Positions 12,884 through 36,039 are shown, counted from the first letter of the stretch. The stretch: 42,024 bases of DNA from an uncultured Bacilli bacterium (GCA_947628375.1 CANQZQ010000002.1:1-42024); one strand, 5' to 3'. The notes: generated by a model from the letters alone, not told the origin. Numbers and translations are program-made.

Positions 12884-12890
12884 AGAGTTG

Positions 12891-13032: not shown

Positions 13033-13228
13033 GGAAGTTATTAAAAGAGATATTATATTATTACTAAAAGAGAGTTAATGGGTTGGTGTAAATTAATGGG
13101 TAATATAATAAATAGTATGGATAATGGAGCTAAATCAGTGAAGACTGTTATAACTAAAAGTGTATGATTAAGTTCATAAATAAAGGTGGTACCGCATTTA
13201 AAGTGTCCTTTTGTTTATGAATTTTTTT
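13033..13228 (+). promoter_or_regulatory. T-box riboswitch leader, probable Met (AUG) specifier, controlling HAD-dut-metG
   Basis: AAGGTGGTACCGC T-box core at 13183-13195. AGAGA/AGAGAG elements at 13044-13074 and a GGTGTAA distal-loop motif at 13085-13091. AUG at 13117-13119 followed by a purine in the putative specifier loop. Terminator TTCATAAAtAAAGG...CCTTTTgTTTATGAA plus T7 at 13173-13228 overlaps the T-box sequence. metG lies downstream. Confidence 0.75.
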
Positions 13229-16668: not shown

Positions 16669-17067
16669 ATGAAAATAAAAAAAGATATTGTTAACACTGT
16701 AATAATATTAACGGCCATAAGTATTACTTTAACATTTATAAAAAAATTAGATAAAAAAACAGAAATTACTAACCCTTGGGAAATAAAGAAAGAAAATTCT
16801 ATAGAAAATGAACAGCCGTTAAATAAAGAAATTTATACCGAAGATGAATTTATAGAATTATTAAATACAAATGATGCCAAAATAATTTATGAAAAAGATA
16901 AAGATAGATATTTTGTTAATACCCATGTCCCAATTTTAGATAATTTCATCTCTCCTGAAGGTTTTCTATTATATCAAGAATATTTATATGTTCAAGAAGA
17001 ACCAAATAAAGGCTTTTATGCTGTTAATAATTATTTATCAATACGTCCTAATAGTAAAGGAAGATAA
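16669..17067 (+). CDS. Hypothetical membrane-anchored protein (132 aa)
   Basis: GGAG RBS and one N-terminal TM helix; no recognisable motif. Confidence 0.5.
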   Translation: MKIKKDIVNTVIILTAISITLTFIKKLDKKTEITNPWEIKKENSIENEQPLNKEIYTEDEFIELLNTNDAKIIYEKDKDRYFVNTHVPILDNFISPEGFLLYQEYLYVQEEPNKGFYAVNNYLSIRPNSKGR

Positions 17068-21816: not shown

Positions 21817-22389
21817 TTATTTGATTATTTCATCAATTAAACCATATTCTAGAGCTTCATCTGGATCCATAAAATTATCTCTTTCGGTATCTTTTTCGAG
21901 TGTCTCAATACTTTTACCAGTGGCATTAGATAAAATATGATTTAATTTATCTTTAATTTTTAAAATCCGCTCAGCAGCAATTTTAATATCTGTTGCTTGG
22001 CCTTGTGTTCCTCCAAGTGGTTGATGAATCATAATTTCCGAATTAGGTAAACTACATCTTTTCCCCTTTGTTCCATTTGCTAAAATAAATGCTCCCATTG
22101 AGGCTGCAAGACCAATGCAAATTGTTTTAATATCACTTTTAATATAATTCATAGTATCATAAATAGCCATTCCACTTGTAATAGATCCACCCGGCGAATT
22201 AATATATAAATAAATATCATTGTGATTTAAACTATCTAAATATAAAAGCTCAGAAACTATAATACTAGCCATACTATCATTAACTTCCCCATTTAAAAAT
22301 ACAATTCGATCATTTAAAAGTCTTGAATATAAATCAAAAGCATATTCTTTATTACTTTCCTTTTCAATCACTGTTGGAATTATGTTCAT
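21817..22389 (-). CDS. clpP: ATP-dependent Clp protease proteolytic subunit
   Basis: IPTVIEKES...[16 protein letters not shown], catalytic GLAASMGAF and IMIHQPLGG. The start at 22389 has an AGGTGA RBS; the track start at 22425 adds 12 unlikely residues. Confidence 0.95.
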
Positions 22390-22486
22390 TTTATCACCTA
22401 TAATTATAATATAAGAATTTAGCATTTTTTATTCAAAAAAATAATAAAATATGATATGATAATAAAAGAGTAAAGGATATGTTAGT

Positions 22487-24133
22487 GTGATGGAAAATAT
22501 TTTAATTACATATAATGGTGAAAAGAAAGAATTTCCCAAATATACTACTTACTATGATATTAGTAAAGCCTTTAATATGTCAAAAAATATTTTAGGAGTT
22601 AAAGTTAATAATGAAGTATTTTCTCTTACTGATGCAACTTCTATATCAGAGGAAATTAATTTTATTGATTTAAATGATATAATAGGTAATAAAATTTATA
22701 AAAGTGGTTTAGAATTTTTATTTGAAGTAGCCCTTAAAGAAGCTTATCCCAATTTAGATATAACATACCAACATAGTGTTCCTAAAGGCTTTTTAGGGGA
22801 AATAGTTGGTGATAAAATTATTACTCAAGATGATTTAGTGAAGATTAAAGGAATAATGGCTAGAATTATATCAGAAGATAAGCCTTTTAAAAAATATACT
22901 ATTAGTAAAAAAGACGCTATTAAATTTTATCAAAGTAAAAATCAAAAAGAAAAGTGTGAAAACATTCAAAATATCTCTGACGTTGCTGTCACTTTATATG
23001 AATTAAATGGTATACATAACTATTTTTATAATGATATGCCTTATAGTACAGGAAGCATAACTAAATACGATATTGTTTATTTAGGAAGAAACAGATTAGT
23101 TTTTTTAATTCCTAACTGGCGTTGTAATGGTGAACTTCCTGAATATGTTCATTATGATAATATTATTAATTCATTTTTAGTAGGTAAGAATTGGCTAGAA
23201 ACTTTAAATATGCAGTATGCTACTTCGATTAATAATACGATAAGTAATGGCAAGATAAAAGATTTCATTAAATCTTGTGAATTAATTTTTAATTTAAATA
23301 TGTCAGATGTTACTAAAGAAATAACTAATAATAGAAATATTAAATTTGTTTTAATTGCGGGTCCATCTTCTAGTGGTAAAACAACAACTGCCAAAAGATT
23401 AGCATCTTATTTAGAAGCCTTTGGTTTTGATCCTTTAAGATTATCAATTGATGATTTTTTCCTAGAAAGAGAAGATACCCCCAAAAATGAAAAGGGCGAA
23501 TATGACTTTGAATGTTTAACAGCAATTGATTTAAATTTATTCAATACTACCTTAAAGAAATTACTTGATGGTGAAGAAGTAAGTCTTCCGACATTTAACT
23601 TTGTTACTGGTAAAAAAGAATATAATGATAATTTAGTTAAAATGAGGGATAATAGTATTATCTTAATTGAAGGCTTACATGCTTTAAATGATGAATTATT
23701 ACCAAGTATCGATAAAAAATATAAATACAAAATTTATTTAAGCCCTTTTATTCCTCTTAATATAGATAGACATAATTATATATCCACAACTGATTTAAGA
23801 TTATTAAGAAGAATAGTTAGAGATAATAGAACAAGAAATTATGATGTTAATAACACTATCAAAGTTTGGCAAAATGTTAGAAATGGTGAAGAAAAATACA
23901 TTTTCCCATACATTCATCAAGCGGATAAAATAATTAATACCGCTCTTACTTATGAAATAGGAGTTATCAAAGTTTATGTTGAACCTTTACTTAGAAGTAT
24001 TAGAGTAAATAGTGATTATTATGAAGAAGCCAAAAGATTATTAAATTTTTTAAAAATTTTTTATACAATACCAAGCGAGTATGTACCAGAAGATTCAATA
24101 CTTAGAGAGTTTATAGGAGGATGCAATGATTAA
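22487..24133 (+). CDS. Uridine-kinase-family P-loop kinase with N-terminal TGS/ThrRS-like domains
   Basis: GPSSSGKTTTAKRL Walker A followed by a PRK/Udk-like region (IILIEGLHALND). The N-terminal ~230 aa resembles the TGS plus second additional domain arrangement. ATG at 22490 is an alternative start. Confidence 0.6.
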   Translation: MMENILITYNGEKKEFPKYTTYYDISKAFNMSKNILGVKVNNEVFSLTDATSISEEINFIDLNDIIGNKIYKSGLEFLFEVALKEAYPNLDITYQHSVPKGFLGEIVGDKIITQDDLVKIKGIMARIISEDKPFKKYTISKKDAIKFYQSKNQKEKCENIQNISDVAVTLYELNGIHNYFYNDMPYSTGSITKYDIVYLGRNRLVFLIPNWRCNGELPEYVHYDNIINSFLVGKNWLETLNMQYATSINNTISNGKIKDFIKSCELIFNLNMSDVTKEITNNRNIKFVLIAGPSSSGKTTTAKRLASYLEAFGFDPLRLSIDDFFLEREDTPKNEKGEYDFECLTAIDLNLFNTTLKKLLDGEEVSLPTFNFVTGKKEYNDNLVKMRDNSIILIEGLHALNDELLPSIDKKYKYKIYLSPFIPLNIDRHNYISTTDLRLLRRIVRDNRTRNYDVNNTIKVWQNVRNGEEKYIFPYIHQADKIINTALTYEIGVIKVYVEPLLRSIRVNSDYYEEAKRLLNFLKIFYTIPSEYVPEDSILREFIGGCND

Positions 24134-25139
24134 AGTAGCGATTAATGGTTTTGGAAGAATAGGTAGAATTGCCTTTAGAGAAATGATTACAACAAGTGAT
24201 TTTGATGTTGTAGCAATTAATGATTTATCAAATGCTGAAGAATTAGCTCATTTACTTAAATATGATACAGTTCATCGTTCATTTCATGAGCAAGAGATTT
24301 CATATGATGGTAATGATATTGTAATTGCAGGTAAAAAAAGAATTAGAGTATTTAGTGAAAAAGATCCAGTTAATTTACCTTGGCGAGATCTAAATGTTGA
24401 TTTAGTTTTAGAGTGTACAGGGGTATTTACTAAATATGAAGATGCAATGAAACATATCACCGCAGGAGCTAAAAAAGTTTTAATATCAGCTCCAGGCAAA
24501 GGTGATATGAAGACAATTGTCTATGGTGTCAATGATAATATTTTAGATGGAACTGAACAAATAGTATCATCAGCTAGTTGTACGACTAATTGTTTAGCTC
24601 CAGTTTTAAAAGTTATAAATGATAATTATGGTATTAACAAAGGATTTATGAGTACTGTTCATGCTTTTACTAATGATCAAGAAACTTTAGATATAGCTCA
24701 TAAAAAAGGTATATATGCAAGACGTGGAAGAGCCGCTAGTCAAAATATTATTCCCGCTTCAACTGGGGCTGCCTCAGCAATTGGTTTAGTTATACCAGAA
24801 TTAAATGGTAAATTAGATGGACTTGCTTATAGAGTACCAGTTTGTGATGGCTCATTAATTGATGTTACTTTAGAGTTAAAATCATCACCATCAATTGATG
24901 ATATAAATAATTTATTTATGAATAATCAAAATGAAACATTAAAATTTACTAAAGATCCAATCGTTTCTAGTGATGTTATTGGTAAAAGATGTGGTTCTCT
25001 AGTAGACGGATTACTTACTAATATGGTTGAAGTAAATAATACAAGATTATATAAAATAGTATCTTGGTATGATAATGAACTTGGTTATACTTGTCAAATG
25101 CTAAGATGTGCTAAAGCAATGTTTAAAAATACTCTTTAA
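24126..25139 (+). CDS. gap: Type I glyceraldehyde-3-phosphate dehydrogenase
   Basis: MIKVAINGFGRIGR, active site SASCTTNCLAP, WYDNELGY. AGGAGGA RBS. Overlaps the upstream gene by 8 nt. Confidence 0.95.
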   Translation: MIKVAINGFGRIGRIAFREMITTSDFDVVAINDLSNAEELAHLLKYDTVHRSFHEQEISYDGNDIVIAGKKRIRVFSEKDPVNLPWRDLNVDLVLECTGVFTKYEDAMKHITAGAKKVLISAPGKGDMKTIVYGVNDNILDGTEQIVSSASCTTNCLAPVLKVINDNYGINKGFMSTVHAFTNDQETLDIAHKKGIYARRGRAASQNIIPASTGAASAIGLVIPELNGKLDGLAYRVPVCDGSLIDVTLELKSSPSIDDINNLFMNNQNETLKFTKDPIVSSDVIGKRCGSLVDGLLTNMVEVNNTRLYKIVSWYDNELGYTCQMLRCAKAMFKNTL

Positions 25140-25152
25140 TGAGTATTTTTTT
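25125..25152. terminator. Bidirectional terminator between gap and the module B regulator
   Basis: AAAAATACTC-tttaat-GAGTATTTTT 10-bp stem with A/T runs on both sides. Confidence 0.65.
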
Positions 25153-25600
25153 AACGTTTATAAGGAGTTCTTTCATCAGTTAAATATAATAAATAATCAA
25201 TTGGTACATTGTAATATTTAGCTAAAATAATTAGCTTTGTAATAGGAATATCGCAATAACTTGTTTCATATTGTGAATAACCATTTTGACTCATATTTAA
25301 TATTTTAGCAATATCTATTTGTAATAAATCTCTATCTTCTCTAACATCTTTTAATCTATTCATGTTATTAGCAGTTTTAATAATATGTGATGGATTATAA
25401 GGTGTTTTTATATCTGTTAAATTTAAAATATAATCGATATTGACATCAAAAATTATCGCTAATTTTCTAAGTTTAGTTGTCGAAATATTTGATAGTTCTG
25501 TCTCATATTGCGAGTATCCATTTTGACTCATATTTAATTCTTTAGCAATATCTTTTTGATATAAATTTTTTTCTTTTCTAAGTTCCTTTAGTCTATTCAT
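25151..25600 (-). CDS. XRE-family regulator with two tandem HTH domains (149 aa), module B
   Basis: Two ~70-79 aa repeats: MNRLKELRKEKNLYQKDIAKELNMSQNGYSQYET...DYILNLTD and MNRLKDVREDRDLLQIDIAKILNMSQNGYSQYET...DYLLYLTDERTPY. Divergent from 25714. Confidence 0.85.
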   Translation of the reverse strand: MNRLKELRKEKNLYQKDIAKELNMSQNGYSQYETELSNISTTKLRKLAIIFDVNIDYILNLTDIKTPYNPSHIIKTANNMNRLKDVREDRDLLQIDIAKILNMSQNGYSQYETSYCDIPITKLIILAKYYNVPIDYLLYLTDERTPYKR

Positions 25601-25622
25601 AATCTCACATCTAAAATTTAAC

Positions 25623-25698
25623 GTATCGTAAATAAAGATATTGACTTATATCGCTATTAACGATATACTTAATTTAATAATATCGTAAATAACGATAT
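25623..25698. promoter_or_regulatory. Three ATATCG/CGATAT-type operator-like repeats around the module B promoter
   Basis: TATCGTAAATAAaGATA (25624-25640), TATATCG-ctattaa-CGATATA (25647-25667, inside the spacer and -10), and ATATCGT-aaata-ACGATAT (25680-25698). Confidence 0.65.
25641..25669 (+). promoter_or_regulatory. Sigma-A-type promoter of the module B large gene
   Basis: TTGACT (25641-25646), a 17-nt spacer, then TATACT (25664-25669). Confidence 0.6.
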
Positions 25699-25713
25699 AA
25701 GGAGAATCTATCT

Positions 25714-27909
25714 ATGAAGAATAAAAAGAATACAATAATGTTAATAATGGTAATATCAATATCTATGGTATTGTTAACATGGAATAAGAGTTATTCATAT
25801 AAAATGGATAATAATGAGATAGAAGAAAAAGAAGTAGAAAGAAAAGAATTTGGGATATATTATCAAACTTCTGGAAATTCATATGAAGAAAAAGATACTT
25901 TCCCAACTCAAGGATATCTGTTAAATACAATAAAAACAGAATGTCATGAATATGGAAGTGATAATGTAATACAAAATGCAGTAACACAAAGTTTAATAAA
26001 TGGAGTAATAGATGGAAGTATAATAGTACAAAGTACAAAAAGTATGTATTGTAAAATATATTTTGATAAAGATGAAACACCAACAGTAAGTTCATTTAAT
26101 ATAACAGGAAAAGATAAAAATGGTGGTGTATTACAAAATGGATATACATATAATACAGGAGTATATGCAATAAGTTGGAATGATAGAGATGTAGCACAAT
26201 ATTGCTTAAGTGATAATAGTAGTACATGTACAAATTGGGTAGAAATAGGAGATAAATCAGTTAAAACAATAACAATAGAGAATAGTACATATACAAATAC
26301 AGAAGGCCCAAAAACAATATATGCATATATAAAAGATAAAGCAAATAATATATCAAATACAATAACAAATTCGACTAAACAAATAGCAGTAGATCAAACG
26401 CCACCTGTAATAAATGCATTAACATTAACGGGAACACAAGCAGCTGGAATGACATTACAAAGTGGATATACTCATACACAAACAGTAAATTATAATGCAA
26501 CTATAACAGAAACAAATATGGAAGGATATTGTATAGTAGATGGAAGTAGTTGTAGTAATTACAATACATCACCAATAACATCATTAAGTAGTACAATAGC
26601 AATAGGAACAACACAAGGAAGCCATCCAATAACATTAAGTGTAAAAGATAAAGCAGGAAATATAGGCAGTAAAACTCAATCGATAAGATTAGACACACAA
26701 AATCCAACAATAACATTGAGTAATGGAACAGCAACAGAAACAAGTATAACAGTAACAGTAAATGCAAGTGATTCTAATGGAATAGCTAGTGTAACATGTA
26801 CAGCAGTAGGAAATAATGAAGCCAAAACTGGAACATATAATAGTACTGCTAAGACATGTACATTTAGTGGTTTAAAAGATGGAACACAATATACAATAAT
26901 TGGAGTAGCAACGGACGAATCAGGAAGAAAAGGTACAAGTACACCAATAGAAGTTACTACAATTAAGCTTTTAACAGATGGTCAAAAAAAGGCTCAAGAA
27001 GTGTTAGGTGTGGTACCAAAAGGGATAAGTGAAAAGTTACTTGGAGACATGTACAGATTTGTAGGTACGAAAGATACTGTAGATAACTGGATATGTTTTG
27101 GTTATAGTAATGTAGATACGGATTGTAAATCACCATCGAGTGATTTTATGTATCGAATAATAGGGATTACTGAAGATGGACAATTAAAACTCATAAAAAA
27201 TTTAGCATATGAAAAGTATGAATGGAATTGTGAAGATTGTGGGAGAAGTCTTCATGGAGCAGCTCTATATGAACTATGGAGTAGCTCAAGTGTCCGATAT
27301 AGGGTGCAATCCGATTTTCCAACAGATCATTTAAGTAATTTATCACCAGGCAGTTCAAAACAATGGAGTGAATTAGTAGAAACAAAAGACTGGTTATATG
27401 GAGATTTTATAGCATATAATAACAATCCAATACAGAATCTTACTGCTAATCAAGTGTATGAAGCCGAGTCTGGAAAAGTAGATGTGTATATTGAAAGAAG
27501 TAGCGAATATGATCTTGTTGGTAAATGGGAGAAAACAATTACGGGTAAATTTAGCTTAATGTATGTTCATGATTTTCTATACTCATATAGCTCTGATAAT
27601 AGTCTTGATTCTTCTAATACTAGATGCACTTACGCGGGTGACTGTAAAGATAGTTGGTTATTTATTGGCAATTCTTTGCCAGAAACAGATAATAACCAAC
27701 AAAGAGATGAATGGACCATGACTTCCAGAGGTTGGGATTATGCTGGGTGGTATCAAGCAAATAGAATCGGCAGCGGGGCCATCCTTGATAGCGCCGCCAC
27801 CAATACGATTTGGTATCGGCCCGTCTTTTATATCTCCCCAACAAAGGTTAAGATAAATAAGGGCAGTGGAGTGACTTCTTCACCTTTTATAGTTGTTCCA
27901 GTAATCTAG
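25714..27909 (+). CDS. N-terminally anchored/secreted modular protein B: same head and Ig/FN3 stalk as 11147-12883, unrelated ~315-aa aromatic-rich C-terminal tip
   Basis: It differs from protein A at 6 of the first 49 residues. Repeats end in VDQTPP and LDTQNP, each with YC(L/I)...C. The FN3-like part contains SITVTVNASDSNGI...FSGLKDGTQYTI. From about aa 418 the tip carries YRFVGTKDTVDNWICFG, FMYRIIGITEDGQLKLI, EWTMTSRG and WYRPVFYI motifs. Confidence 0.8.
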   Translation: MKNKKNTIMLIMVISISMVLLTWNKSYSYKMDNNEIEEKEVERKEFGIYYQTSGNSYEEKDTFPTQGYLLNTIKTECHEYGSDNVIQNAVTQSLINGVIDGSIIVQSTKSMYCKIYFDKDETPTVSSFNITGKDKNGGVLQNGYTYNTGVYAISWNDRDVAQYCLSDNSSTCTNWVEIGDKSVKTITIENSTYTNTEGPKTIYAYIKDKANNISNTITNSTKQIAVDQTPPVINALTLTGTQAAGMTLQSGYTHTQTVNYNATITETNMEGYCIVDGSSCSNYNTSPITSLSSTIAIGTTQGSHPITLSVKDKAGNIGSKTQSIRLDTQNPTITLSNGTATETSITVTVNASDSNGIASVTCTAVGNNEAKTGTYNSTAKTCTFSGLKDGTQYTIIGVATDESGRKGTSTPIEVTTIKLLTDGQKKAQEVLGVVPKGISEKLLGDMYRFVGTKDTVDNWICFGYSNVDTDCKSPSSDFMYRIIGITEDGQLKLIKNLAYEKYEWNCEDCGRSLHGAALYELWSSSSVRYRVQSDFPTDHLSNLSPGSSKQWSELVETKDWLYGDFIAYNNNPIQNLTANQVYEAESGKVDVYIERSSEYDLVGKWEKTITGKFSLMYVHDFLYSYSSDNSLDSSNTRCTYAGDCKDSWLFIGNSLPETDNNQQRDEWTMTSRGWDYAGWYQANRIGSGAILDSAATNTIWYRPVFYISPTKVKINKGSGVTSSPFIVVPVI

Positions 27910-27916
27910 TGTTCAA

Positions 27917-27986
27917 ATCGAGAAGGAAAACTCGTAAAAACCTTCATAGACTTAATCCTTGGGAAGAGAGCAATCTCTTCCTTTTT
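27917..27986 (+). repeat. Conserved 3' element of module B, including an intrinsic terminator (27962-27986)
   Basis: Near-identical to 12891-12961. Hairpin GGAAGAGA-gcaa-TCTCTTCC plus T5. It begins 7 nt after the stop codon. Confidence 0.8.
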
Positions 27987-28014
27987 ATGTTGAAAACTAT
28001 TAAGTTTTCAACAT
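27987..28014 (+). repeat. Palindrome, member 2 of the ATGTTGAAAA/TTTTCAACAT family
   Basis: ATGTTGAAAAC-tattaa-GTTTTCAACAT, a perfect 11-bp inverted repeat. Confidence 0.7.
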
Positions 28015-28065
28015 AATATTTATTTTATTAAACATTATTGGTAAAATTATAATAGAAAGAGTGAT

Positions 28066-29211
28066 ATGATGAAATATTTAAGTAAAGATAATATAAATAA
28101 TAAAAAAGTATTATTAAGATGTGATTTTAATGTCCCTGTAGTAGATAATAAAATTACCGATGATAGCAGAATAACTAAAAGTTTTAAAACAATTAATTAT
28201 TTATTAGATAATAACAATAAAGTTATTTTATTAAGTCATTTTGGAAGAGTAAAAAGTGAAGAAGATAAAAAGAAAAATAGTTTATACATTGTTTATGAAT
28301 ATTTAAAGAAGTATTATGATTTAGAATTTATTAGTAATCCCTTAGATTTAAGCATTATAAATAATAGTGATAAAAATTTATTTTTAGTAGAAAATACAAG
28401 ATTTACTGATATTCCCGAAAAAAAAGAAAGTGCTAATGATTTAAAACTAGCTAAATATTGGAGTAATTTTGCTGATGTTTTTGTTATTGATGCTTTTGGT
28501 TCCATGCATCGTACTCATTCATCTACTGCTGGAATATCTAACTATTTACCAACTTATTTAGGATTCTTAGTCGAAGAAGAATTAAATAACTTAAGTCCTC
28601 TTTTAAACCATATTGATTTAGTTATTATGGGTGGTGCTAAAGTAGATGATAAAATTAAAATAATTGAGGGTATTCTTCCTAAATGTAATTACTTAATTAT
28701 AACTGGAGGTATTTTAAATACATTTTTACAAGTAATGGGCTATAATGTGGGAAATAGTTTAGTTGCTACAGATGAAGAAGTTTTAAATAAAGTTAAAGAT
28801 ATATTAGATAGTAATAAAGATAAAATATTATATTCAGATACATTTATTGTTAAAAGAGATAATGATAATATTAAACTAAGTTTAAAAGATATTAAAGATA
28901 GAGATATTATTTATGATAATATTATTGATTTAGATAATATTATTAATAATTCTAAAATTATCTTTTTAAATGGTACTTGTGGTATGTGTGAAAATGATGC
29001 TTATAAAGAAGGAACTACTATGTTATTAAATAAACTAGCTAACTGTGGTAATGATGTTTATATTGGTGGTGGTGATACTGCTTCTTTTGTTAAACTATTT
29101 AATTTAGAAGAAAAGTTTAAATATGTTTCAAGTGGGGGAGGAGCAACTTTAGAATATATAAGTGATGGTGATTTAAAAGCTTTAAAATATATTAGAGAAA
29201 ATTTGCAATAA
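28066..29211 (+). CDS. pgk: Phosphoglycerate kinase (short, divergent)
   Basis: LLRCDFNVPV..KITDDSRI, SHFGR, AFGSMHR, GGAKVDDKI, IGGGDTASFV, SSGGGATLEY; 381 aa. Confidence 0.85.
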   Translation: MMKYLSKDNINNKKVLLRCDFNVPVVDNKITDDSRITKSFKTINYLLDNNNKVILLSHFGRVKSEEDKKKNSLYIVYEYLKKYYDLEFISNPLDLSIINNSDKNLFLVENTRFTDIPEKKESANDLKLAKYWSNFADVFVIDAFGSMHRTHSSTAGISNYLPTYLGFLVEEELNNLSPLLNHIDLVIMGGAKVDDKIKIIEGILPKCNYLIITGGILNTFLQVMGYNVGNSLVATDEEVLNKVKDILDSNKDKILYSDTFIVKRDNDNIKLSLKDIKDRDIIYDNIIDLDNIINNSKIIFLNGTCGMCENDAYKEGTTMLLNKLANCGNDVYIGGGDTASFVKLFNLEEKFKYVSSGGGATLEYISDGDLKALKYIRENLQ

Positions 29212-29252
29212 AATGCAAATTTTATTAATATTTATATTAAAAATGCATTCTA

Positions 29253-29281
29253 TTGCAAATTTATAAATTATGTAATATAAT
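29253..29281 (+). promoter_or_regulatory. Sigma-A-type promoter upstream of the AAA ATPase gene
   Basis: TTGCAA (29253-29258), a 17-nt spacer, then TATAAT (29276-29281). Confidence 0.55.
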
Positions 29282-29299
29282 TATTTTGGAGGAAGCAAA

Positions 29300-30499
29300 A
29301 TGTTAAAAAGACAAGATTATTTAAAAAAATTATCTTCTTGGAAAGATAAAGACTTAATAAAAGTAGTAACAGGAATAAGAAGATGTGGAAAATCAACCTT
29401 ATTTTTATTATTTATAGATTATCTTAAACAAGAAGGAATAAAAGATGACCATATTATATATTTAAATTTGGAATTACCTGATTATAATTTTAATAATTAT
29501 AAAGAATTATATGATTATATAAAAAATAAAATAAAAGATAATAAAAAATACTATGTATTTTTAGATGAAGTACAAAATGTAGCAGAATTTCAAAAAGCCA
29601 TTGATGGATTATATATAAATAAAAATATAGATTTATATATAACAGGTTCTAATGCTTACCTTTTATCTGGAGAACTTGCTACTTTACTTTCAGGAAGATA
29701 TATTGAAATAAATATGTTACCACTATCTTTTAAAGAATATAAAGATTATTTTAAAGAAGATAATAATGAAAAATTATATTTACAATATATTAATAATAGT
29801 TCTTTTCCTTATGCTTTAAATTTAAATGATAGTGATCAAATTGATAGCTATTTAGATAGTATATATAATACAATAATAATTAAGGATATATTAGATAGAA
29901 ATAAGATTAGTGATGCTAGTATTTTAAAAAGCATTACCGAATTTTTATTTTCTTCAATAGGCTCTAGTTTATCAGTTAAAAAGATTGCTGATACACTTAC
30001 TTCAAATGGAAGAAAAACATCTATTCATACAGTAGAAAATTATTTAGAAAGTTTAACAAATAGTTATATTTTTAATAAAGTAAATAGATATGATATTAAA
30101 GGAAAAGAATATTTACAAACAGGTTGTAAGTACTATGCTACAGATGTAACAATGAGGTATGCTGTTTTAGGAAGAAAAAATATTGATTTAGGACATATTT
30201 TAGAAAATATAGTTTATTTAGAATTAAAAAGACGAGGCTATAAAGTATTTATAGGAAAAAGCGGAAGAGGAGAAGTAGACTTTGTAGCCCAAAATAAAGA
30301 AGGCAATATTTATATTCAAGTTGCTTATTCTGTAAGGAATGAAGAAACTTTAAAAAGAGAATTAAATGCTTTAAAATCAATAAATGATCATTATCCAAAA
30401 TTTATTTTGACTATGGATATGGATCCTGAAGTAGATTTTGACGGTATTAGAAAAATGAATGTTTTAAATTGGTTATTAAAAAATAATGTTGAAAAGTAA
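29300..30499 (+). CDS. AAA-type ATPase with C-terminal DUF4143-like (PD-(D/E)xK-like) domain
   Basis: Walker A GIRRCGKSTL, Walker B YVFLDEVQNV, C-terminal GRGEVDFVAQ...IYIQVAYS; 399 aa; GGAGGA RBS. Confidence 0.7.
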   Translation: MLKRQDYLKKLSSWKDKDLIKVVTGIRRCGKSTLFLLFIDYLKQEGIKDDHIIYLNLELPDYNFNNYKELYDYIKNKIKDNKKYYVFLDEVQNVAEFQKAIDGLYINKNIDLYITGSNAYLLSGELATLLSGRYIEINMLPLSFKEYKDYFKEDNNEKLYLQYINNSSFPYALNLNDSDQIDSYLDSIYNTIIIKDILDRNKISDASILKSITEFLFSSIGSSLSVKKIADTLTSNGRKTSIHTVENYLESLTNSYIFNKVNRYDIKGKEYLQTGCKYYATDVTMRYAVLGRKNIDLGHILENIVYLELKRRGYKVFIGKSGRGEVDFVAQNKEGNIYIQVAYSVRNEETLKRELNALKSINDHYPKFILTMDMDPEVDFDGIRKMNVLNWLLKNNVEK

Positions 30500-30522
30500 T
30501 AAGTTATCAACATTATTTTTTT
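30486..30522 (+). terminator. Terminator hairpin, member 3 of the ATGTTGA.../...TCAACAT family
   Basis: ATGTTGA (30486-30492) pairs with TCAACAT (30507-30513), followed by T7. The left arm lies inside the last codons of the ATPase gene. Confidence 0.55.
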
Positions 30523-30523
30523 C

Positions 30524-30551
30524 TTGACAAAATAATGTTTCTGATTATAAT
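30524..30551 (+). promoter_or_regulatory. Sigma-A-type promoter of the lipoprotein gene
   Basis: TTGACA (30524-30529), a 16-nt spacer, then TATAAT (30546-30551). Confidence 0.6.
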
Positions 30552-30586
30552 AAAGGCTAGTTTTTTTAAGAAAGGGGATTTTTTGA

Positions 30587-32497
30587 ATGATTGAAAAAAC
30601 AAAAATTAATTTTAAGAAAGGAGTAACTTGTCTTTTAGTTGCTCTTCAAATTGGTGTAGTAGCGGGTTGTAATACAAAAGAAGATGATAGTCAAATAACT
30701 ATTTCTAAAGAAGAATATGAGAGCTTATTAGATGATTTAGAACAAAAAGAAAAAGCAATTGAAGATTTAGATTTAGAATCACATAATTTAATAGATCAAA
30801 TTAATCACTTAGAAGCCCAAAATAATGATTTAAATAGTTCATTAAATGATTTAGATTATTTAAGAGAAAAACTTAACGAAGTTGAAGCCGAAGATTTTGC
30901 TAATTACTTAAAAGAAAATAATACCGCAACAATTGATGGCGAATTAGATCTAACTGGTGAATATTGGCATGCTAGAAGATACAAAGTTGGTGATGAATAC
31001 CATTGTGTAATAGATATAACGGGAGAGATTCCACTTGTAGCACATAGCGATTTAAGATTAAAAGAAGTAATTGGCTATTTGCATCTAAATTCTTATTTGG
31101 ATTATCCAGGAGATATGGAATTAAATATTTCATTAGATAAGTTAGCCTCAGCAAGATTTAGTGATATTCCATTTGAAAAATTTACTATTTTAAATATATT
31201 ACCTAGTGAGAAAATGGAAATAGATGAAAACTTTACGATGCCATCTTTTGACGGCGAACTTGAAAGTGTTTTCTTTGATGCTGGAACATTTGAAAAAATT
31301 TCTAACGAAAATATCGTTAAATTATTTTATTATGTTTCTAAGCATAATGGAAGTATAATCATTGATAAATTATGTGCTGATGAAAAAGCAAAAATTGAAG
31401 AAATAGCTGATAAAATAAAAGATATGCATTTTAGAAGATTTGCTAGTTATTGGGTTAGTAATGATTGTCTTGATACCTTTAAATATATTCCAGCCGAAAC
31501 GATTGTTCCGGTAATTCAAGGAAAATATTCTTATACTTTTTTACCTAATGCCAAATACGTTTTAAATGACGCAACAGATAATTTATCTTTATATGGACTA
31601 GAATTAAAAGAAGGTATAAGTGTTGATAGTAATCATAGTATTAATTTAGATTTAAATATAAGTAAACCATTTTGTGATGTTAACTTTAATCTACCTAAAG
31701 ATAGTCATGTTAATTTAAACTATTATGATAATTATGTTATATTTACCGAAAATACTTTAAAAAGCTTAGAAAATTATAATGTTAATTTTAATGAAGGAGT
31801 ACCTCTTAAAAGTGACGTAAGTGCAATTAAAGAAATGAATACTTTATCTAAAAACATTAAACTAGAAATGTTAGAAAATAAAGAATATCGTCGTTTTAAA
31901 ATAACTTTGAATATTCCTGAATATGGTATTAGTGATAATGATTTTCTAACTCTCCAAAATATTATCTCATTCTGCAATGAATATGGTGATTATAATCATT
32001 TTGATGATTTAGTTATTAATGCCTATAATAAAGAAGATATTCCAAATAATATTACTGATCATTTGTATTTTAATGAATTAAGAAATATTACATTTAATAA
32101 TTATGGTAGTAACATTAGTTTTCTAAATATATTTAATTCTTCTAATGGGTGTGGCTTTACTAATTTAACATTTAATAATTATTCTAAAGTTAATGATTAT
32201 GATTTATTAAATAAAGTTGTTTCTAAGTATACTCATGATAATGGGATTTCTATATTAAATCATGTTAATTCAAATGAGTTATACATAACTTATGAAGATG
32301 GTTCTAAAGAAGGACAAAGCCTTCCAAGTGAAGCCCAAGTACAAAAACTAATTGGCTATGGATATAGAGAAGACGAGGCTTTTAACATAGTTAATAATAA
32401 AGAATATGATAAAATATTTTATTTCTATGTTTATGTTAATGGGGAAAAACATAAAATTAGTTATGAAAAAACATATTCTTTAAAAAGAGCAAAATAA
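30587..32497 (+). CDS. Large lipoprotein with N-terminal coiled coil, function unknown
   Basis: Lipobox LVALQIGVVAGC, followed by an Asp/Glu/Leu-rich coiled coil and then ~500 aa with no motif I recognise. Confidence 0.65.
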   Translation: MIEKTKINFKKGVTCLLVALQIGVVAGCNTKEDDSQITISKEEYESLLDDLEQKEKAIEDLDLESHNLIDQINHLEAQNNDLNSSLNDLDYLREKLNEVEAEDFANYLKENNTATIDGELDLTGEYWHARRYKVGDEYHCVIDITGEIPLVAHSDLRLKEVIGYLHLNSYLDYPGDMELNISLDKLASARFSDIPFEKFTILNILPSEKMEIDENFTMPSFDGELESVFFDAGTFEKISNENIVKLFYYVSKHNGSIIIDKLCADEKAKIEEIADKIKDMHFRRFASYWVSNDCLDTFKYIPAETIVPVIQGKYSYTFLPNAKYVLNDATDNLSLYGLELKEGISVDSNHSINLDLNISKPFCDVNFNLPKDSHVNLNYYDNYVIFTENTLKSLENYNVNFNEGVPLKSDVSAIKEMNTLSKNIKLEMLENKEYRRFKITLNIPEYGISDNDFLTLQNIISFCNEYGDYNHFDDLVINAYNKEDIPNNITDHLYFNELRNITFNNYGSNISFLNIFNSSNGCGFTNLTFNNYSKVNDYDLLNKVVSKYTHDNGISILNHVNSNELYITYEDGSKEGQSLPSEAQVQKLIGYGYREDEAFNIVNNKEYDKIFYFYVYVNGEKHKISYEKTYSLKRAK

Positions 32498-32505
32498 ATT
32501 TTAGA

Positions 32506-32534
32506 AAGAGCTGTTCCAAAGCAGTTCTTTTTTA
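32506..32534 (+). terminator. Rho-independent terminator
   Basis: AAGAGCTG-ttccaaag-CAGTTCTT (one G-U pair) followed by a T-run. Confidence 0.65.
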
Positions 32535-32552
32535 TTTTATAAAAAATTTAAT

Positions 32553-32614
32553 AAATTTTTCTAAAAAAGAAGGAAATGAAAGAAAAAAAGCTAATATATA
32601 TAGTGAAGGGAGGA
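32553..32614 (+). repeat. ~60-nt purine-rich leader element, copy 2
   Basis: See 3062-3121. Here the SD/ATG is followed by only a 7-codon ORF. Confidence 0.6.
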
Positions 32615-32715
32615 AATATAAATGTCGAAAAAAAGTTTCTTTTGATATCATTTGTCAAAAACATTGCTTTTCTAAAAATAATTATTAATATATAGACTTT
32701 AAAGGAGGAATAGCA

Positions 32716-33525
32716 ATGTTAAATTTTGATTATTTAAACGATGACTTAGCTTTTAAACAAGTATTTATGCATAATGAAATACTAGAAGATTTAATAACAT
32801 CATTTTTAAATTATATAGGCAAAAACAATAATAATAGATTAATAACCGAATTAATACCCAATTCTTATATAAATCCTGATCATAAAAAATTTAGAAGCTA
32901 TTATGGTGATTTAACTGCAACTAAAGATGATGTTATCATATCAATTGAAATGTATAAAAATAAGTTTAGTCAAAAAGACTATAATAAAAGTTTAGGCTAT
33001 TTATGTAGGCTTTATAGTCGTCAAGCAAAAAGTATAAAAACAACTGATTACAAGAAAGTTATAAGTCTCAATTTCATTAAAGGCAATTTTAAAAGAATCA
33101 ATAATAATATTGTTAATGGTTATAGTCTTAAGAATGTCATTAATAATAGTGAATTAAATGATAATATTTTAATGTATTTAGTAAGGTATGATTTAATAGA
33201 TAATATACCTTATGAAGATGAAGAAGAAAGATTTATAACATTTTTAAGAATAATAGGGAGTAAAAGTGTGAAAGATATGAAAAAATATGCCAAAGGAGAT
33301 AAGATAATGGAAGAAATAATAAAGATGTTAAAAGAATGGAATATTGAATCAGATAGAATTAATTATCAAAGAAGAATTGATGAAGCTAAAGAAGAAGGAA
33401 TAGAAGCAAATAAAATTGCCACAGCTAAAAAATTAATTAATTTAAATGCTTCAAAAGAATACATATTAGAAATAACTGAAATTAGTGATAAAGAATATGA
33501 AAAATTAATAAATAATAAATGGTAA
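32716..33525 (+). CDS. Rpn/YhgA-like PD-(D/E)xK nuclease family protein (putative transposase-like, PDDEXK_2)
   Basis: The N-terminal DDLAFKQVFMHNEILEDLITSFLNYIG and the core GDLTATKDDVIISIEMY match the pattern of this family. AAAGGAGG RBS. Confidence 0.6.
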   Translation: MLNFDYLNDDLAFKQVFMHNEILEDLITSFLNYIGKNNNNRLITELIPNSYINPDHKKFRSYYGDLTATKDDVIISIEMYKNKFSQKDYNKSLGYLCRLYSRQAKSIKTTDYKKVISLNFIKGNFKRINNNIVNGYSLKNVINNSELNDNILMYLVRYDLIDNIPYEDEEERFITFLRIIGSKSVKDMKKYAKGDKIMEEIIKMLKEWNIESDRINYQRRIDEAKEEGIEANKIATAKKLINLNASKEYILEITEISDKEYEKLINNKW

Positions 33526-33556
33526 AATAGATAAAAAATATAGATAATCGTCATAA

Positions 33557-33618
33557 TTCGACAAATATTTACATAGATAGACAAAACTTGTCAAAACTTC
33601 CTATGGCTTTTTGTCAAA
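33557..33618. promoter_or_regulatory. Spo0A-box cluster upstream of spo0A
   Basis: Perfect 0A box TGTCGAA on the minus strand (TTCGACA at 33557-33563), plus TGTCAAA at 33589-33595 and 33612-33618. Confidence 0.55.
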
Positions 33619-33674
33619 TATTCTTTTATAATGAATTTACAAGCAGTACAAAAATTATAAAAGAGGAGAGAAAA

Positions 33675-34436
33675 ATGAAAAACAACGTTAAGGTTTTAGT
33701 TATTGATAATAATGAATCAATGACTAAAGACTTAGAGAAGTATTTTAGCAGTCATGAAGTTATTAAAGTAGTAGCTTGTAAAAATAATGGAGAAGAAGGT
33801 CTTAGTTATTTAATTAATAATATTAATAATGTTGATATTATCTTAATGGATCTTATTCTTCCTAAAATGGATGGTTTATATATTTTAAGTGAAATGGCAT
33901 CAAGGAATATTAGAAAGGATGTTATTATAGCCACTAATTTCCAAGATGAACATATTTTAGCGGAAGCTAATAAATATGGTATTGATTATTACATGTTAAA
34001 ACCTATAAACTATGCTAGTTTAGAAAAAAGAATTTTGTCTATTGAATTAAATAATGAAAGTAAGAAGAAAAAGATATTTAATTTAGAAAGAATTCTAACT
34101 GATTTACTTCATAATTTAGGAATTCCATCTCATGTAAGAGGGTATCAATATATTAAAGAAGGAGTTCAAATAGTCTACGAAGAAAGTAATGGTATTTCTT
34201 ATATAACAAAAGATGTTTATCCGGAAATAGCTAGAAGATATAATACAACTTCGACAAGAGTAGAAAGAGCAATTAGACATGCTATTGAAATTAGTTGGAA
34301 TCGTGGCGATATAAATTTAATGGAAAGTATATTTGGCAATAGTATTAATGTTAATCGTGATAAGCCAACAAATGCTGAATATTTAACAACTATTGCTGAT
34401 AAATTAAAAGTTGATAATAATTTAGTTTATAATTAG
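33675..34436 (+). CDS. spo0A: Sporulation master response regulator Spo0A
   Basis: Receiver domain (VLVIDNNESM..., DIILMDLILPKMDG) plus the Spo0A-specific C-terminus LGIPSHVRGYQYIKEGV...TSTRVERAIRHAIEISWNRG. The ATG at 33675 has a GAGGAG RBS; the track start at 33588 is an extension. Confidence 0.95.
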   Translation: MKNNVKVLVIDNNESMTKDLEKYFSSHEVIKVVACKNNGEEGLSYLINNINNVDIILMDLILPKMDGLYILSEMASRNIRKDVIIATNFQDEHILAEANKYGIDYYMLKPINYASLEKRILSIELNNESKKKKIFNLERILTDLLHNLGIPSHVRGYQYIKEGVQIVYEESNGISYITKDVYPEIARRYNTTSTRVERAIRHAIEISWNRGDINLMESIFGNSINVNRDKPTNAEYLTTIADKLKVDNNLVYN

Positions 34437-34461
34437 AAAATCTCTTTTTCTAATTTTTTTT
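34433..34461 (+). terminator. Rho-independent terminator of spo0A
   Basis: TTAGAAAA-tctct-TTTTCTAA followed by T8. Confidence 0.7.
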
Positions 34462-34542
34462 GACTTTAATTTGTCTTATTTTCCTTAATGGCAAATTGTT
34501 TTTTTTCATATATTATGGTATATTAAACATAAGGTGAATACT

Positions 34543-36039
34543 ATGAAAAAAATATTAACTATCATTTTAGATGGTTTTGGTTTAAGAGATGAAGAGTATG
34601 GAAATGCAATTCATGCTGCCCAAATGAAAACATTTAATAAACTATGGGAAGAATACCCTCATTCAACACTTACAGCTAGTGAAGAAGCAGTTGGTCTTAA
34701 AAAAGGACAATTTGGTAATAGTGAGACAGGCCATTTAACGATTGGGGCTGGGAGGCTTATTAAACAAAATGAAACTTTAGTTGATGATTTTTTAAATAGT
34801 AATGTTTTAGAAAATGAAAAATTTCAAGAATTATTAAATAATAAAGATAAAGATATTCATCTAATGGGCTTATGTAGTGATGGTAATGTTCATGCGGGAA
34901 TAGATGATTTTCTTAAATTATATCAAATTCTTGTTAAAAATGATTTTCATAAAATTCATTTTCATCTTATTACTGATGGAAGAGATACAGGTATCCATGA
35001 TGCTTATAAATATATTTTCCAAATAGAAAATGAAATAAAGAAAAATAAAATTGGTGATATTGCAACTATATGTGGAAGATATTATGCCATGGATCGTGAT
35101 AAAAATTATGACCGGACTAAAGTTTATTATGATTTAATAACTAAAGGAAAAGGGGAAGATGTAAATAATATTAAAGATGCTATTTATAGTTTGTATGAAA
35201 AAAATATTACGGATGAATTTTTAAAACCTTTAGTAGTATCTCATGCATCTTTGATTAAAAATGGTGATATCTTAATTTGGATGAACTATCGAGCTGATCG
35301 AGCAAAGCAAATTTTATCTTCTTTGATATTACCTGATTTTAATGAGTTTAGTCGTCCATATTTAGATAATTTATCTGTTTATAGTTTCTTACCTATTGAT
35401 AAAAATATTCCAACCAATAATTTTATTTTAGAACCAATTATCAATAATCCCTTAGGGTTGTACTTAGAAAAATTAGAATTTACCCAAGCAAGAATTGCTG
35501 AAACTGAGAAATTTCCTCATGTAACATATTTTTTTGATGGCGGATATAATGGTAAAATTAGTAAATGTAATGAATTTTTAATTCCTTCTCCAAAGGTTGC
35601 CACATATGATTTAAAACCAGAAATGAGCGCTGTCGAAATAACGAAAAAATGTATTGAATGTATGGTTCAAGATTATGATTTTATTTTAATGAATTTTGCT
35701 AATCCAGATATGGTTGGTCACACTGGTAATTTTGAAGCTACAGTTAAAGCGTGTATGGCTGTTGATTTATGTCTAGATAAAATTATTGAGAAAGCTAATG
35801 AAAATTTTTATAAAGTTATCATTCTTGCTGATCATGGTAATGCTGATATTATGCTTGATGAAAATGGCAATAAAGTTACAACTCATACTTTGAGTAAAGT
35901 TCCTTTTATTATTTTAGATAAAAGTGTTAAATTAAAAGAGCATGGTGATTTAACAATGGTTGCTCCAACCATCTTAGAATATATGGATATTGCTGTCCCA
36001 GAAGAAATGAAAGATACGGAAATATTATTAAAAAGATAG
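34543..36039 (+). CDS. gpmI: 2,3-bisphosphoglycerate-independent phosphoglycerate mutase
   Basis: ILDGFG, GNSETGHLTIGAGR (catalytic Ser), ITDGRDT, NFANPDMVGHTG, LADHGNAD. The ATG at 34543 follows an AAGGTGA RBS. Confidence 0.95.
   Translation: MKKILTIILDGFGLRDEEYGNAIHAAQMKTFNKLWEEYPHSTLTASEEAVGLKKGQFGNSETGHLTIGAGRLIKQNETLVDDFLNSNVLENEKFQELLNNKDKDIHLMGLCSDGNVHAGIDDFLKLYQILVKNDFHKIHFHLITDGRDTGIHDAYKYIFQIENEIKKNKIGDIATICGRYYAMDRDKNYDRTKVYYDLITKGKGEDVNNIKDAIYSLYEKNITDEFLKPLVVSHASLIKNGDILIWMNYRADRAKQILSSLILPDFNEFSRPYLDNLSVYSFLPIDKNIPTNNFILEPIINNPLGLYLEKLEFTQARIAETEKFPHVTYFFDGGYNGKISKCNEFLIPSPKVATYDLKPEMSAVEITKKCIECMVQDYDFILMNFANPDMVGHTGNFEATVKACMAVDLCLDKIIEKANENFYKVIILADHGNADIMLDENGNKVTTHTLSKVPFIILDKSVKLKEHGDLTMVAPTILEYMDIAVPEEMKDTEILLKR

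Follow-up and report, generated by a model that had tools for sequence, protein, structure and literature searches.

How did a regulator gene and a gene for a large, predicted surface protein come to lie between gap and pgk? In Bacillus subtilis these two genes belong to one operon (cggR-gapA-pgk-tpi-pgm-eno). In a stretch of 42,024 nucleotides from an uncultured Bacilli bacterium (GCA_947628375.1, CANQZQ010000002.1:1-42024), which we call the window and number from its first letter, they lie about 2.9 kb apart. An original prediction, made from the sequence alone, had placed in this spacer an XRE gene, its control region, a gene for a 731-aa protein (here B731) and a 3' element, and all four were located there. 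It named this set module B, recognised a similar module A elsewhere in the window, and suggested that such modules are mobile or are copied by recombination. Our analysis points to a history in which the spacer is probably an old variable slot, holding one copy of a recombining family of regulator and surface-protein genes.

All comparative sequences are contigs from metagenome-assembled genomes (MAGs), with one representative genome per species. A pgk scan at one genome per species yielded 34 loci, nearly all from uncultured gut Bacilli and many from rabbit. The clpP gene (21817-22425 in the window, named by sequence similarity alone), a udk-like gene, gap and the module proteins were mapped onto these loci, and the open reading frames (ORFs) in each spacer were listed. 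Further loci came from a scan of the genome collection with a family alignment, after which window proteins were mapped onto the matches, and from a scan with the single helix-turn-helix (HTH) XRE of distant filled sites, which added L192, L195 and L200 (loci carry L numbers throughout). Species trees were built by neighbour-joining from one to three proteins.

Spacer contents across relatives

Relatives with contiguous gap and pgk, for which the original prediction had proposed to look, do exist, and the spacer differs widely in content among the others:

L011, L013, L014, L016, L031: empty spacer of 18-82 nt (ORF mapping)
L006: remnant spacer of 398 nt (ORF mapping)
L004, L015, L018: XRE and a secreted protein with a B731-like tip (ORF mapping)
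L192, L195, L200: XRE and a lectin-tip protein (from the XRE scan)
L010: tip protein without an XRE
L005: AbiEii and a GDPD enzyme
L017: YhcG/DUF1016 nuclease
L023, L025, L029: leucine-rich repeat (LRR; LRR_5), Ig-like or AbiEi-like proteins

The same core genes flank varied cargo even among close kin. The flanks of L005 and L017 are 93-94% identical and their cargo is wholly different, and the contents of L004 and L006 are also unlike despite their close kinship.

The distribution of the filled state speaks to its age. In the window's own group the module follows gap in every member seen in the family-alignment scan. The sister species (L086; Lapin-011 bin94) has gap 94% and XRE 96% identical to the window's, with the module behind gap; three other species viewed from the gap side (L054, L059, L077) have gap (85-87% identical), XRE and a family gene in order, and L001, viewed from the pgk side, has family tip, 3' core and pgk in order. 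Two same-species contigs (L035, L036) carry module B. We found no pair of sites, one filled and one empty, with near-identical flanks: L086, with flanks 88% identical in nucleotides, is filled, and empty sites are confined to species whose pgk is at most 65% identical, within a range of 31-97% for the pgk relatives as a whole. Six distant species (L004, L015, L018, L192, L195, L200) share the order gap, XRE, tip protein, pgk, and in three of the six pgk is 43-48% identical to the window's, against 60-65% in the empty-site species. The neighbour-joining trees put the filled state at the base, with the empty sites nested inside. A terminator left in L006 belongs to a gene that its relative L004 still has, and we therefore read the L006 spacer as a deletion. 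A 34-nt overlap at the L004/L006 junction was considered as a target duplication and rejected, being two similar AT-rich terminators.

Given these tree positions and the leftover terminator of L006, the simplest reading of these sequences is an old variable locus that was occupied before the species diverged and then underwent losses and replacements. The original prediction had allowed that one conserved gene at this place in all relatives would indicate an old, fixed arrangement. The arrangement does appear old, whereas the gene inside it varies in sequence. Of the insertion idea itself, the empty sites and the varying contents between close relatives stand, and the recent landing does not.

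An alternative is that the spacer was ancestrally empty and was a favoured landing site, filled several times independently. The wholly different cargo of L005 and L017 would fit such a history, as would the adjacency of gap and pgk elsewhere in Bacillota, of which B. subtilis is an example. The regulators supply observations that count against long occupancy. Identity among XREs at the distant gap-pgk sites ranges over 72-89% irrespective of how far apart the species are (r = 0.23 against gap identity), which makes repeated acquisition at a favoured site conceivable. The window's XRE (XRE-B), with its tandem HTH, is of another type than the single-HTH regulator at the distant filled sites; in one genome the protein closest to it is encoded at a different locus (L050; 83% identical, with the same operators), so that whole modules, or at least regulators, have also been exchanged. 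Features of the material count on the same side: repeated families break MAG assemblies and can mis-join them, L086 stopping just past the 3' element and the L033 contig beginning within pgk, and the species trees are simple ones. Under recurrent insertion, however, a gene pair of one kind must have entered the spacer at least four times, always in one orientation, where long occupancy asks for about three losses. The lineages sampled at the greatest distance are filled, the L006 remnant shows that loss happens, and neither insertion machinery nor insertion scars were found. We hold recurrent insertion to be improbable, if worth keeping in view, and take long occupancy followed by loss and replacement as the working account.

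The single-HTH XRE of the distant sites (MTNLKKIVK..NKSLTALAVELEISQEAISQYISGKIKPK; L190-L222) occurs in 33 species of gut Bacilli at 58-100% identity, from rabbit, human, deer and other hosts, and in most of them it lies away from both gap and pgk. A metagenome scan using the XRE returned no close relatives, and looking up the exact proteins of pgk and three homologues gave no records. L004 and L006 share a conserved stretch of about 350 nt just before pgk (7650-8000 and 7660-8000, respectively), with GC-rich inverted repeats GACGCCGCC...GGCGGCGTGAA and a possible hydrophobic ORF of about 38 codons, which is kept with or without the XRE and protein pair. L077 and L002 come from one genome (Lapin-027 bin20), in which gap and pgk are on separate contigs. 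One contig reads gap, XRE, family gene, 3' core, rnr, smpB and the second tilS, ftsH, AAA_14, XRE, family gene, pgk; this suggests a rearrangement with a module at each breakpoint.

Anatomy of the gap-pgk spacer

The features of the window's spacer and its flanks are as follows:

24126-25139, plus strand: gap, the left conserved flank (Pfam Gp_dh_N and Gp_dh_C)
25125-25152, both strands: A/T-flanked hairpin common to the convergent gap and XRE genes, with folds of -12.8 and -9.7 kcal/mol
25151-25600, minus strand: XRE regulator of 149 aa with two tandem HTH_3 domains (Pfam HTH_3 in two stretches, E 2.8e-25)
25601-25713: divergent control region of 113 nt (repeat finding, promoter scan, direct reading)
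25714-27909, plus strand: gene for the 731-aa predicted surface protein (ORF; predicted fold)
26971-27906, plus strand: tip domain, a DUF6273-like or C-type-lectin-like putative binding domain with raised G+C content at third codon positions (GC3)
27917-27986, plus strand: 3' element including the terminator, 70 nt, 96% identical to 12891-12960 behind the module A gene
27919-27958, plus strand: 3' core, a 4-bp hairpin CGAG-AAGGAAAA-CTCG followed by TAAAAACCTTCATAGACTTAATCC
27961-27987, plus strand: predicted intrinsic terminator of the surface-protein gene, with a 9-bp stem and a T run (terminator scan, fold)
27985-28016: perfect palindrome with 14-nt arms (27985-27998 and 28003-28016)
28039-28065, plus strand: promoter-like region and ribosome-binding site (RBS) of pgk, with TGGTAAAAT at 28039-28047
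28066-29211, plus strand: pgk, the right conserved flank (Pfam PGK, E 5e-97)

The hairpin at 25125-25152 folds on either strand (z-scores -7.3 and -6.4), has the stop codon of gap in the loop and that of the XRE at the foot, and is 100% conserved in L086. It is likely a bidirectional terminator, as had been proposed. XRE-B scores 88.6 bits over its two stretches, above the HTH_3 gathering cut-off of 23, and its gene contains an internal duplication (25262-25363 and 25499-25600, 83% identity). In the control region, three operator-like palindromes of the form ATATCG-N7-CGATAT (about 25624-25642, 25647-25667 and 25679-25697) overlap a promoter-like site, TTGACT-17-TATACT (-35 at 25641-25646, -10 at 25664-25669), and the RBS AGGAG (25700-25704) precedes the B731 gene. 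Behind that gene, the hairpin proper of the predicted terminator spans 27961-27982 with the T run after it, the form expected of an intrinsic terminator. The boundary described for the pgk side, a terminator and a perfect palindrome, is real, although the palindrome's arms are longer than the 11 bp first given.

A repeat search of 24900-28300 found internal repeats only, and no direct or inverted repeats or target duplication bounding module B. Pfam scans covered the window ORFs of at least 140 aa (minus 21817-22425) together with 16669-17067, and no integrase, transposase or reverse transcriptase was found among them, which agrees with what had been read from the sequence. Only two window genes have a flavour of mobility, one of the PDDEXK_2 family (32716-33525) and one for an AAA_14/DUF4143 ATPase (29300-30499), and both lie outside module B.

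A second copy of the module

The paralogous copy consists of:

10787-12960: module A, with XRE, family protein, 3' core and terminator
10787-11017, minus strand: XRE with a single HTH
11147-12883: family protein A578, 578 aa, whose Cys-rich tip is unrelated to the B731 tip
12893-12960: 3' core and terminator, behind A578

Module A was confirmed in its predicted position, with a MurJ/Polysacc_synt flippase-like gene on one side and a T-box (13023-13213) leading the HAD-dut-metG genes on the other. With 59.8 bits in a search of 311 nt (E 8.5e-13), the T-box stays under the Rfam gathering score of 93, and the default window scan missed it. This site is conserved as well: the order flippase, XRE, family gene recurs in L080, L089 and L100, and the order family gene, dut, metG in L069 and L104. 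The two module proteins are 54% identical across their first ~420 aa and have unrelated C-termini. Upstream, the halves that hold regulator, operators and promoter are unrelated, and likeness begins only about 15 nt before the start codon.

These comparisons bear on the proposal that module B is a recent mobile unit, transposed or copied whole into a gap-pgk operon. The empty sites in five relatives and the presence of two similar modules within one 42-kb window are what one would expect of such a unit; the GC3 of the B731 tip is foreign to the genome, and IS200/IS605 elements in related genomes do target the 3' regions of the family. Yet the sister and four further species of the group are filled (in four of these five the gap side was seen, in L001 the pgk side), as are the six distant species. 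No recombinase was found among the scanned window ORFs, no target duplication or terminal repeats bound the module, the upstream halves of modules A and B do not match, and a raised tip GC3 is general to the 36 family genes examined. The recent mobile unit is largely refuted, and we give it very little credence.

gap and pgk as separate transcription units

A related suggestion, that pgk acquired a promoter through the insert, did not hold. An extended -10-like motif, TGnTAAAAT, lies about 20 nt before the pgk RBS in most relatives examined, at filled (L001-L003) and at empty sites (L011, L013, L016), and in the window at 28039-28047; L014 has the variant TATAAAAT, from which TG is absent. Since the motif occurs at both kinds of site, it is ancestral rather than acquired. 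The empty-site relatives also have a terminator hairpin behind gap, and gap and pgk are probably separate transcription units in this clade. With a terminator behind gap and a promoter before pgk, the spacer would be a transcriptionally safe slot, in which genes could be gained and lost without polar effects.

The glycolytic genes of the window are scattered more widely, in the order gap, module B, pgk, AAA_14 gene, gene for a 636-aa protein, PDDEXK_2 gene, spo0A, gpmI (24126-36039). From pgk to gpmI there are 5.3 kb, including spo0A, with no tpi between. The 636-aa protein has an N-terminal hydrophobic segment with a Cys and reads as lipoprotein-like.

Predicted structure of the surface protein and its tip

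An AlphaFold2 model of B731, made with an alignment of 31 sequences, has a predicted local distance difference test (pLDDT) score of 85.7. It comprises a membrane helix (aa 4-23), a beta-rich N-domain (44-119), three to four Ig-like domains (125-415) and a mixed alpha/beta tip (420-731). As a whole the model matches adhesin stalks, among them the BIg domains of SiiE (Foldseek E 2e-11), while Pfam gives weak matches to Big_7 and fn3. From this model, B731 is predicted to be a membrane-anchored stalk-and-tip surface protein. A search of 5.8 billion clusters returned 45 homologues, all unnamed.

Modelled alone, the tip reaches a pLDDT of 89.9 and a predicted template modelling score of 0.91. Foldseek gives one strong match, to 9qa6, the ThomasA IgA peptidase of Thomasclavelia ramosa (E 7.9e-7), followed by weak matches to C-type lectins. 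We infer that the match falls on the N-terminal domain of 9qa6, because the remainder of that structure consists of peptidase and beta-domains. The N-terminal domain of ThomasA is a DUF6273 domain that is dispensable for IgA cleavage (PMC12402451), and elsewhere DUF6273 is called C-type-lectin-like, and diversity-generating retroelements are reported to target it in the receptor-binding proteins of phages (PMC10743442). The window tip itself has no Pfam match up to E = 1 and does not reach the DUF6273 gathering score, and a distant family member (P0042) does match DUF6273, at 30.6 bits against a cut-off of 23.5. On its predicted fold the window tip is a structural relative of DUF6273 rather than a demonstrated member, and it may bind a host, dietary or microbial ligand.

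A gene family with private regulators

The family alignment identified 79 loci, concentrated in a few rabbit MAGs, with more than 20 copies in one genome and at least 11-25 copies per genome. In the collections searched, the family is peculiar to a group of uncultured, very AT-rich, spore-forming rabbit-gut Bacilli, whose genomes are probably small.

A small divergent regulator ORF lies upstream in 27 of the 28 family genes with enough upstream sequence. Fifteen of these regulators were recognised by a hidden Markov model made from the window XREs, and the other 12, found by reading the sequences, are read as belonging to other XRE subfamilies or as ribbon-helix-helix-like. Palindromes in the upstream regions differ from copy to copy. 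Such an organisation is unlike a single expression site served by silent, promoterless cassettes, since the same 27 of 28 copies have a start codon, a promoter region and a regulator of their own.

A phage-type repressor beside a tail-fibre-like receptor-binding protein could also be what remains of a prophage. XRE-B does match the phage repressor family phrog_8 (E 3e-36), and DUF6273/C-lectin modules with Ig-like domains occur in phage receptor-binding proteins (PMC10743442). A search of 2.9 million viral contigs, however, gave no relatives of the family, B731 had no PHROG match, and the Pfam scans showed no other phage genes nearby. The protein has an N-terminal membrane anchor, and the family counts dozens of copies, each amid housekeeping genes. 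A prophage remnant is thus a remote prospect.

Uncoupled histories of stalk and tip

We compared the family genes along their length. In the window, the A578 and B731 genes are 97% identical in nucleotides over their first 30 codons and fall to background by about codon 400. Their synonymous divergence (dS) rises along the gene from 0.13 through 0.18, 0.37 and 0.43 to 1.1 (the last value near aa 330-420), with a ratio of nonsynonymous to synonymous divergence (dN/dS) of 0.5-1.06. Between window and sister, gap, XRE and the udk-like gene have a dS of 0.44-0.65 and a dN/dS of 0.04-0.11. Since the dS of 0.13-0.43 in the 5' ~1.1 kb of the A/B pair is lower than that between the species, these 5' parts are younger than the species split, and the sites that hold them are older. 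Over about nt 40-440 and 740-1140 of the gene, A578 clearly resembles B731 more than it does its positional orthologue L080; between nt 440 and 740 it is about equally near to both, and its upstream promoter is nearer to that of L080.

The same mosaicism appears between species. Module B is colinear between window and sister at 88% nucleotide identity until 19 nt before the B731 start codon; past that break the likeness is nearly gone, and it returns at the 3' element (96%). In module A the break falls within the stalk, at about aa 227, and the likeness again returns at the 3' element. The sister gene at the gap site is only 31-45% identical to B731. It has suffered a deletion from inside the third operator (L086 5500-5523 against window 25690-25845) that removes RBS, start codon and anchor (the first ~44 codons), and is probably a pseudogene unless the deletion is an assembly artefact.

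One genome carries 18 complete paralogues. Their N-domain and stalk are on average 72-77% identical, with the closest pairs at 80-90%, and their tips are 47-63% identical (80% in one pair) or of another fold. Stalk and tip identity are hardly correlated (r = 0.12), and only 2 of the 18 have the same nearest neighbour by both measures, indicating that stalk and tip have uncoupled histories. Many paralogues, conserved ends, a variable interior and discordance between segments together give the family the profile of a gene-conversion family. The suggestion of copying by recombination accordingly stands for the structural gene, given the dS values, the comparison of orthologue with paralogue and the stalk/tip discordance, and falls for the module as a unit.

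Base composition changes along the genes as well. GC3 is 0.08-0.09 in N-domains and stalks, which is the housekeeping level, and averages 0.31 in the tips (36 complete genes). In B731 it is 0.26 in the tip against 0.07-0.12 in the rest of the gene. Along the B731 tip it goes up from 0.05-0.08 to 0.18-0.23, and the last ~90 codons by the core reach 0.35-0.50. Such a rise occurs in every family gene examined (L037-L090; window 26971-27906 and 12400-12880), with values up to 0.35-0.57 in the last codons before the core. Being common to all 36 genes, the raised tip GC3 is not explained by one recent import. A process with its anchor at the 3' end would account for it, and GC-biased gene conversion is one candidate.

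A near-invariant 3' core

A search with nhmmer found 44 copies of the core, always on the strand of the gene and just behind its stop codon, and a pattern search raised the number to 66-67 distinct copies in five genomes. The consensus, CGAG-AAGGAAAA-CTCG-TAAAAACC(T)TCATAGACTTAA, is about 40 nt long and almost invariant. Nearly all assessable cores (61 of 63) lie within 400 nt downstream of a family tip ORF. Across 185,579 species genomes an exact 23-mer of the core has 69 occurrences, of which 66 are in four rabbit-gut genomes; the three outliers (Butyrivibrio, Moraniibacteriota, Oscillospiraceae) share nothing past the 23-mer and were set aside as chance. In the terminator that follows the core, the stem sequence differs in nearly every copy and still pairs, an equivalent hairpin being present in 66 copies. 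The core is evidently under strong constraint. Each genome has its own variant, shared by all its copies, which indicates concerted evolution, and in one lineage TGAC...GTCA replaces CGAG...CTCG, a change of two compensatory pairs. Rfam gave no family at threshold for the 3' element, the PGK motif (RF03040) reaching 18.7 bits against 50.8 (E 8.1).

We considered several roles for the core and rejected them. Pairing with the start-codon region (CTTCATAGA and TCTATGAAG are reverse complements) would require covariation, and none was seen: the start contexts vary and the core is constant. A small ORF on the reverse strand of the core is shifted out of frame by the 1-nt indel that distinguishes the lineages. 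Pairing with GGATTAAGT at the stalk/tip junction rests on an 11-nt antisense match that is explained by conserved G-L-S codons and is not present in the window's own gene. The right-end hairpin of IS200/IS605 elements (GCGAG-TTTA-CTCGC-TAAA) resembles the core (CGAG-loop-CTCG-TAAAA) over too short a length, and the modules have no matching left end.

A conserved hairpin behind genes with lectin-like tips raises a further possibility, namely a diversity-generating retroelement whose reverse transcriptase would hypermutate the tips from a template repeat, with the core as homing signal. The tip fold is of the class typical of such targets, conserved sequence and a hairpin lie just 3' of the gene, and the tips are its most divergent part. 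But no reverse transcriptase was found in the window or seen in the fetched flanks, and no template-like copy of the tip 3' ends occurs outside family genes in the fetched loci. Copies show no relation to one another in the sequence directly before the core, they differ over the entire 300-aa tip rather than in a variable region of about 100 nt, and two unrelated tip folds share one core. We consider the retroelement the least probable of the explanations weighed.

Two kinds of repeated element were also seen. The palindrome behind module B belongs to a family (TGTTGAAAACT...AGTTTTCAACA and variants) of terminator-like sequences behind pgk, the AAA_14 gene and family genes in several species. 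Copies lie in the window at 27985-28016 and 30488-30511, after pgk in L013 (9149-9175), L014 (9143-9168) and L004 (9152-9176), and behind family genes in L044, L048 and L060; the family behaves like a clade-specific repeated palindrome. In L101 (9151-9765 and 10160-10407), an IS200/IS605-type element with a 139-aa TnpA interrupts a Cys-rich tip, and a deletion derivative with both ends and no transposase lies exactly at the 5' edge of the core; both elements follow TTGA. L001 has an IS200-like TnpA gene close behind pgk (2685-3113), and L006 has one as well.

Proposed mechanism

The anatomy of the spacer, its distribution among species, the mosaicism of the family and the predicted folds are the observations that our explanation joins. 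The module has three parts: a small divergent regulator, a membrane-anchored stalk-and-tip protein, and a 3' core of about 40 nt with a terminator. The slot would have held an XRE and lectin-tip pair since before the species diverged, to be emptied later in some lineages and refilled in others with an AbiE toxin-antitoxin, a YhcG nuclease or LRR/Ig surface proteins. Gene conversion among paralogues would keep the 5' end and stalk alike within each genome and join them to different tips, with one crossover in the shared 5' part or stalk and the other at the conserved last ~90 codons or the 3' core. The XRE would bind the three ATATCG-N7-CGATAT operators that overlap the promoter and repress the surface-protein gene, and with a private specificity for each paralogue the paralogues could be switched on independently. 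The C-type-lectin-like tip would bind a ligand. The core could be the distal homology anchor for tip exchange, or a 3' untranslated region (3' UTR) signal read as RNA.

Some findings on the family pull the other way. The covariation in the core hairpin comes from a single lineage. One genome is rich in family genes without the core, so the core would be dispensable to the family; in that genome the genes are followed directly by a palindrome resembling 27985-28016. Tips within a genome are at most 60-80% identical, and no very recent tip transfer was caught. With these points included, the old variable slot with its recombining family remains the reading that we favour.

A bolder and doubtful extension of it is that the modules jointly form a programmed surface-variation system of new design, with private repressors, one or a few genes displayed per cell and a shared 3' signal. 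Under this extension the 3' signal may direct tip exchange, the GC3 gradient being a footprint of biased conversion, or may be a 3'-UTR RNA that reports or limits expression.

The favoured reading replaces a mobile element that split a glycolytic operon with a transcriptionally insulated spacer flanked by a pair of essential genes, a stable home for fast-evolving accessory genes in many species. It also brings out a previously undescribed family with a private regulator for each copy, a near-invariant 40-nt core and a three- to five-fold rise in GC3 towards the 3' end. If the conditional steps hold, the lineage would offer a natural system in which to study the variation of binding surfaces by gut commensals without invertases or retroelements, as well as a test of biased gene conversion shaping composition at recombination anchors. 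Its practical importance is limited until the organisms can be cultured or their transcripts mapped.

Comparison with known systems

A literature search on a gap-pgk hot spot and on these rabbit genomes found nothing relevant, and we compared the locus with better-known systems. Variability hot spots between conserved core genes are familiar as defence islands. Like them, the gap-pgk slot has one core pair flanking varied cargo that includes an AbiEii toxin-antitoxin, a YhcG nuclease and surface proteins. Unlike them, it has no integrase, tRNA or attachment site, sits in what is elsewhere a glycolytic operon, and has an XRE and lectin-tip cargo that persists across deep lineages. The B. subtilis operon has the same gap/pgk order and strand, and in some relatives of the window the two genes are 18-82 nt apart; the difference is the terminator hairpin behind gap and the promoter-like motif before pgk, present here even where the genes are adjacent.

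Surface-protein families that diversify by gene conversion include Neisseria pilE/pilS, with its conserved 3' Sma/Cla repeat, and the variable proteins of Mycoplasma and Borrelia. The window family shares with them its many paralogues, conserved and hypervariable segments, mosaic histories and concerted evolution, as well as a short conserved non-coding 3' sequence that is a possible recombination anchor. It differs in consisting of full genes with their own promoters and private regulators, dispersed among housekeeping genes, and in having tips of at least two unrelated folds, and it is known here from sequence alone.

At the level of proteins, the tip resembles ThomasA (9qa6) and the phage 'tentaclin' proteins in predicted fold and in its combination with Ig-like domains, and ThomasA too comes from a gut Bacillota related to Erysipelotrichales. 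In contrast to these proteins, the B731 tip has no Pfam match, peptidase domain or retroelement. SiiE (PDB 2yn3/2yn5) likewise builds an extended stalk from tandem beta-sandwich domains, whereas B731 has three or four such domains, an N-terminal membrane helix rather than type I secretion, and 16-17% identity. The control region recalls the Cro/CI switches in its HTH_3 domains, divergent genes and three palindromic operator-like sites over a promoter. XRE-B differs in having two HTH per chain, its putative target is a surface-protein gene rather than a lytic programme, and the family has one regulator per paralogue, from several subfamilies including a ribbon-helix-helix-like one.

Neighbouring genes

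The window has a G+C content of about 24%. Its housekeeping genes (rplI, dnaB, rlmH, dut, metG, tatD, ksgA, yabG, gap, pgk, spo0A, gpmI and a Mur ligase gene) mark it, by gene content, as coming from a spore-forming member of Bacillota.

The AAA_14/DUF4143 gene behind pgk is missing in the sister species, where the sequences at window positions 29280 and 30465 join at L033 340 / 347, and palindromes lie on both sides of it. Homologues lie between gap and XRE in L054 and before XRE in L002, and L001 has a broken remnant after pgk. Its varying placement indicates that this gene moves round the neighbourhood independently of the module. The protein encoded at 32716-33525 (PDDEXK_2, 'PD-(D/E)XK nuclease family transposase', Rpn-like) may act as a nuclease that promotes recombination; in L081 and L101, homologues 49% identical to it are found within a few kb of family genes.

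At the start of the window, 534-3044 encodes an 836-aa BspA-type LRR protein, a candidate surface protein. Its aa 358-836 resemble the translation of 111-1613 (27% identity, tblastn), a stretch that begins before the gene and runs into its 5' part, which points to internal repetition.

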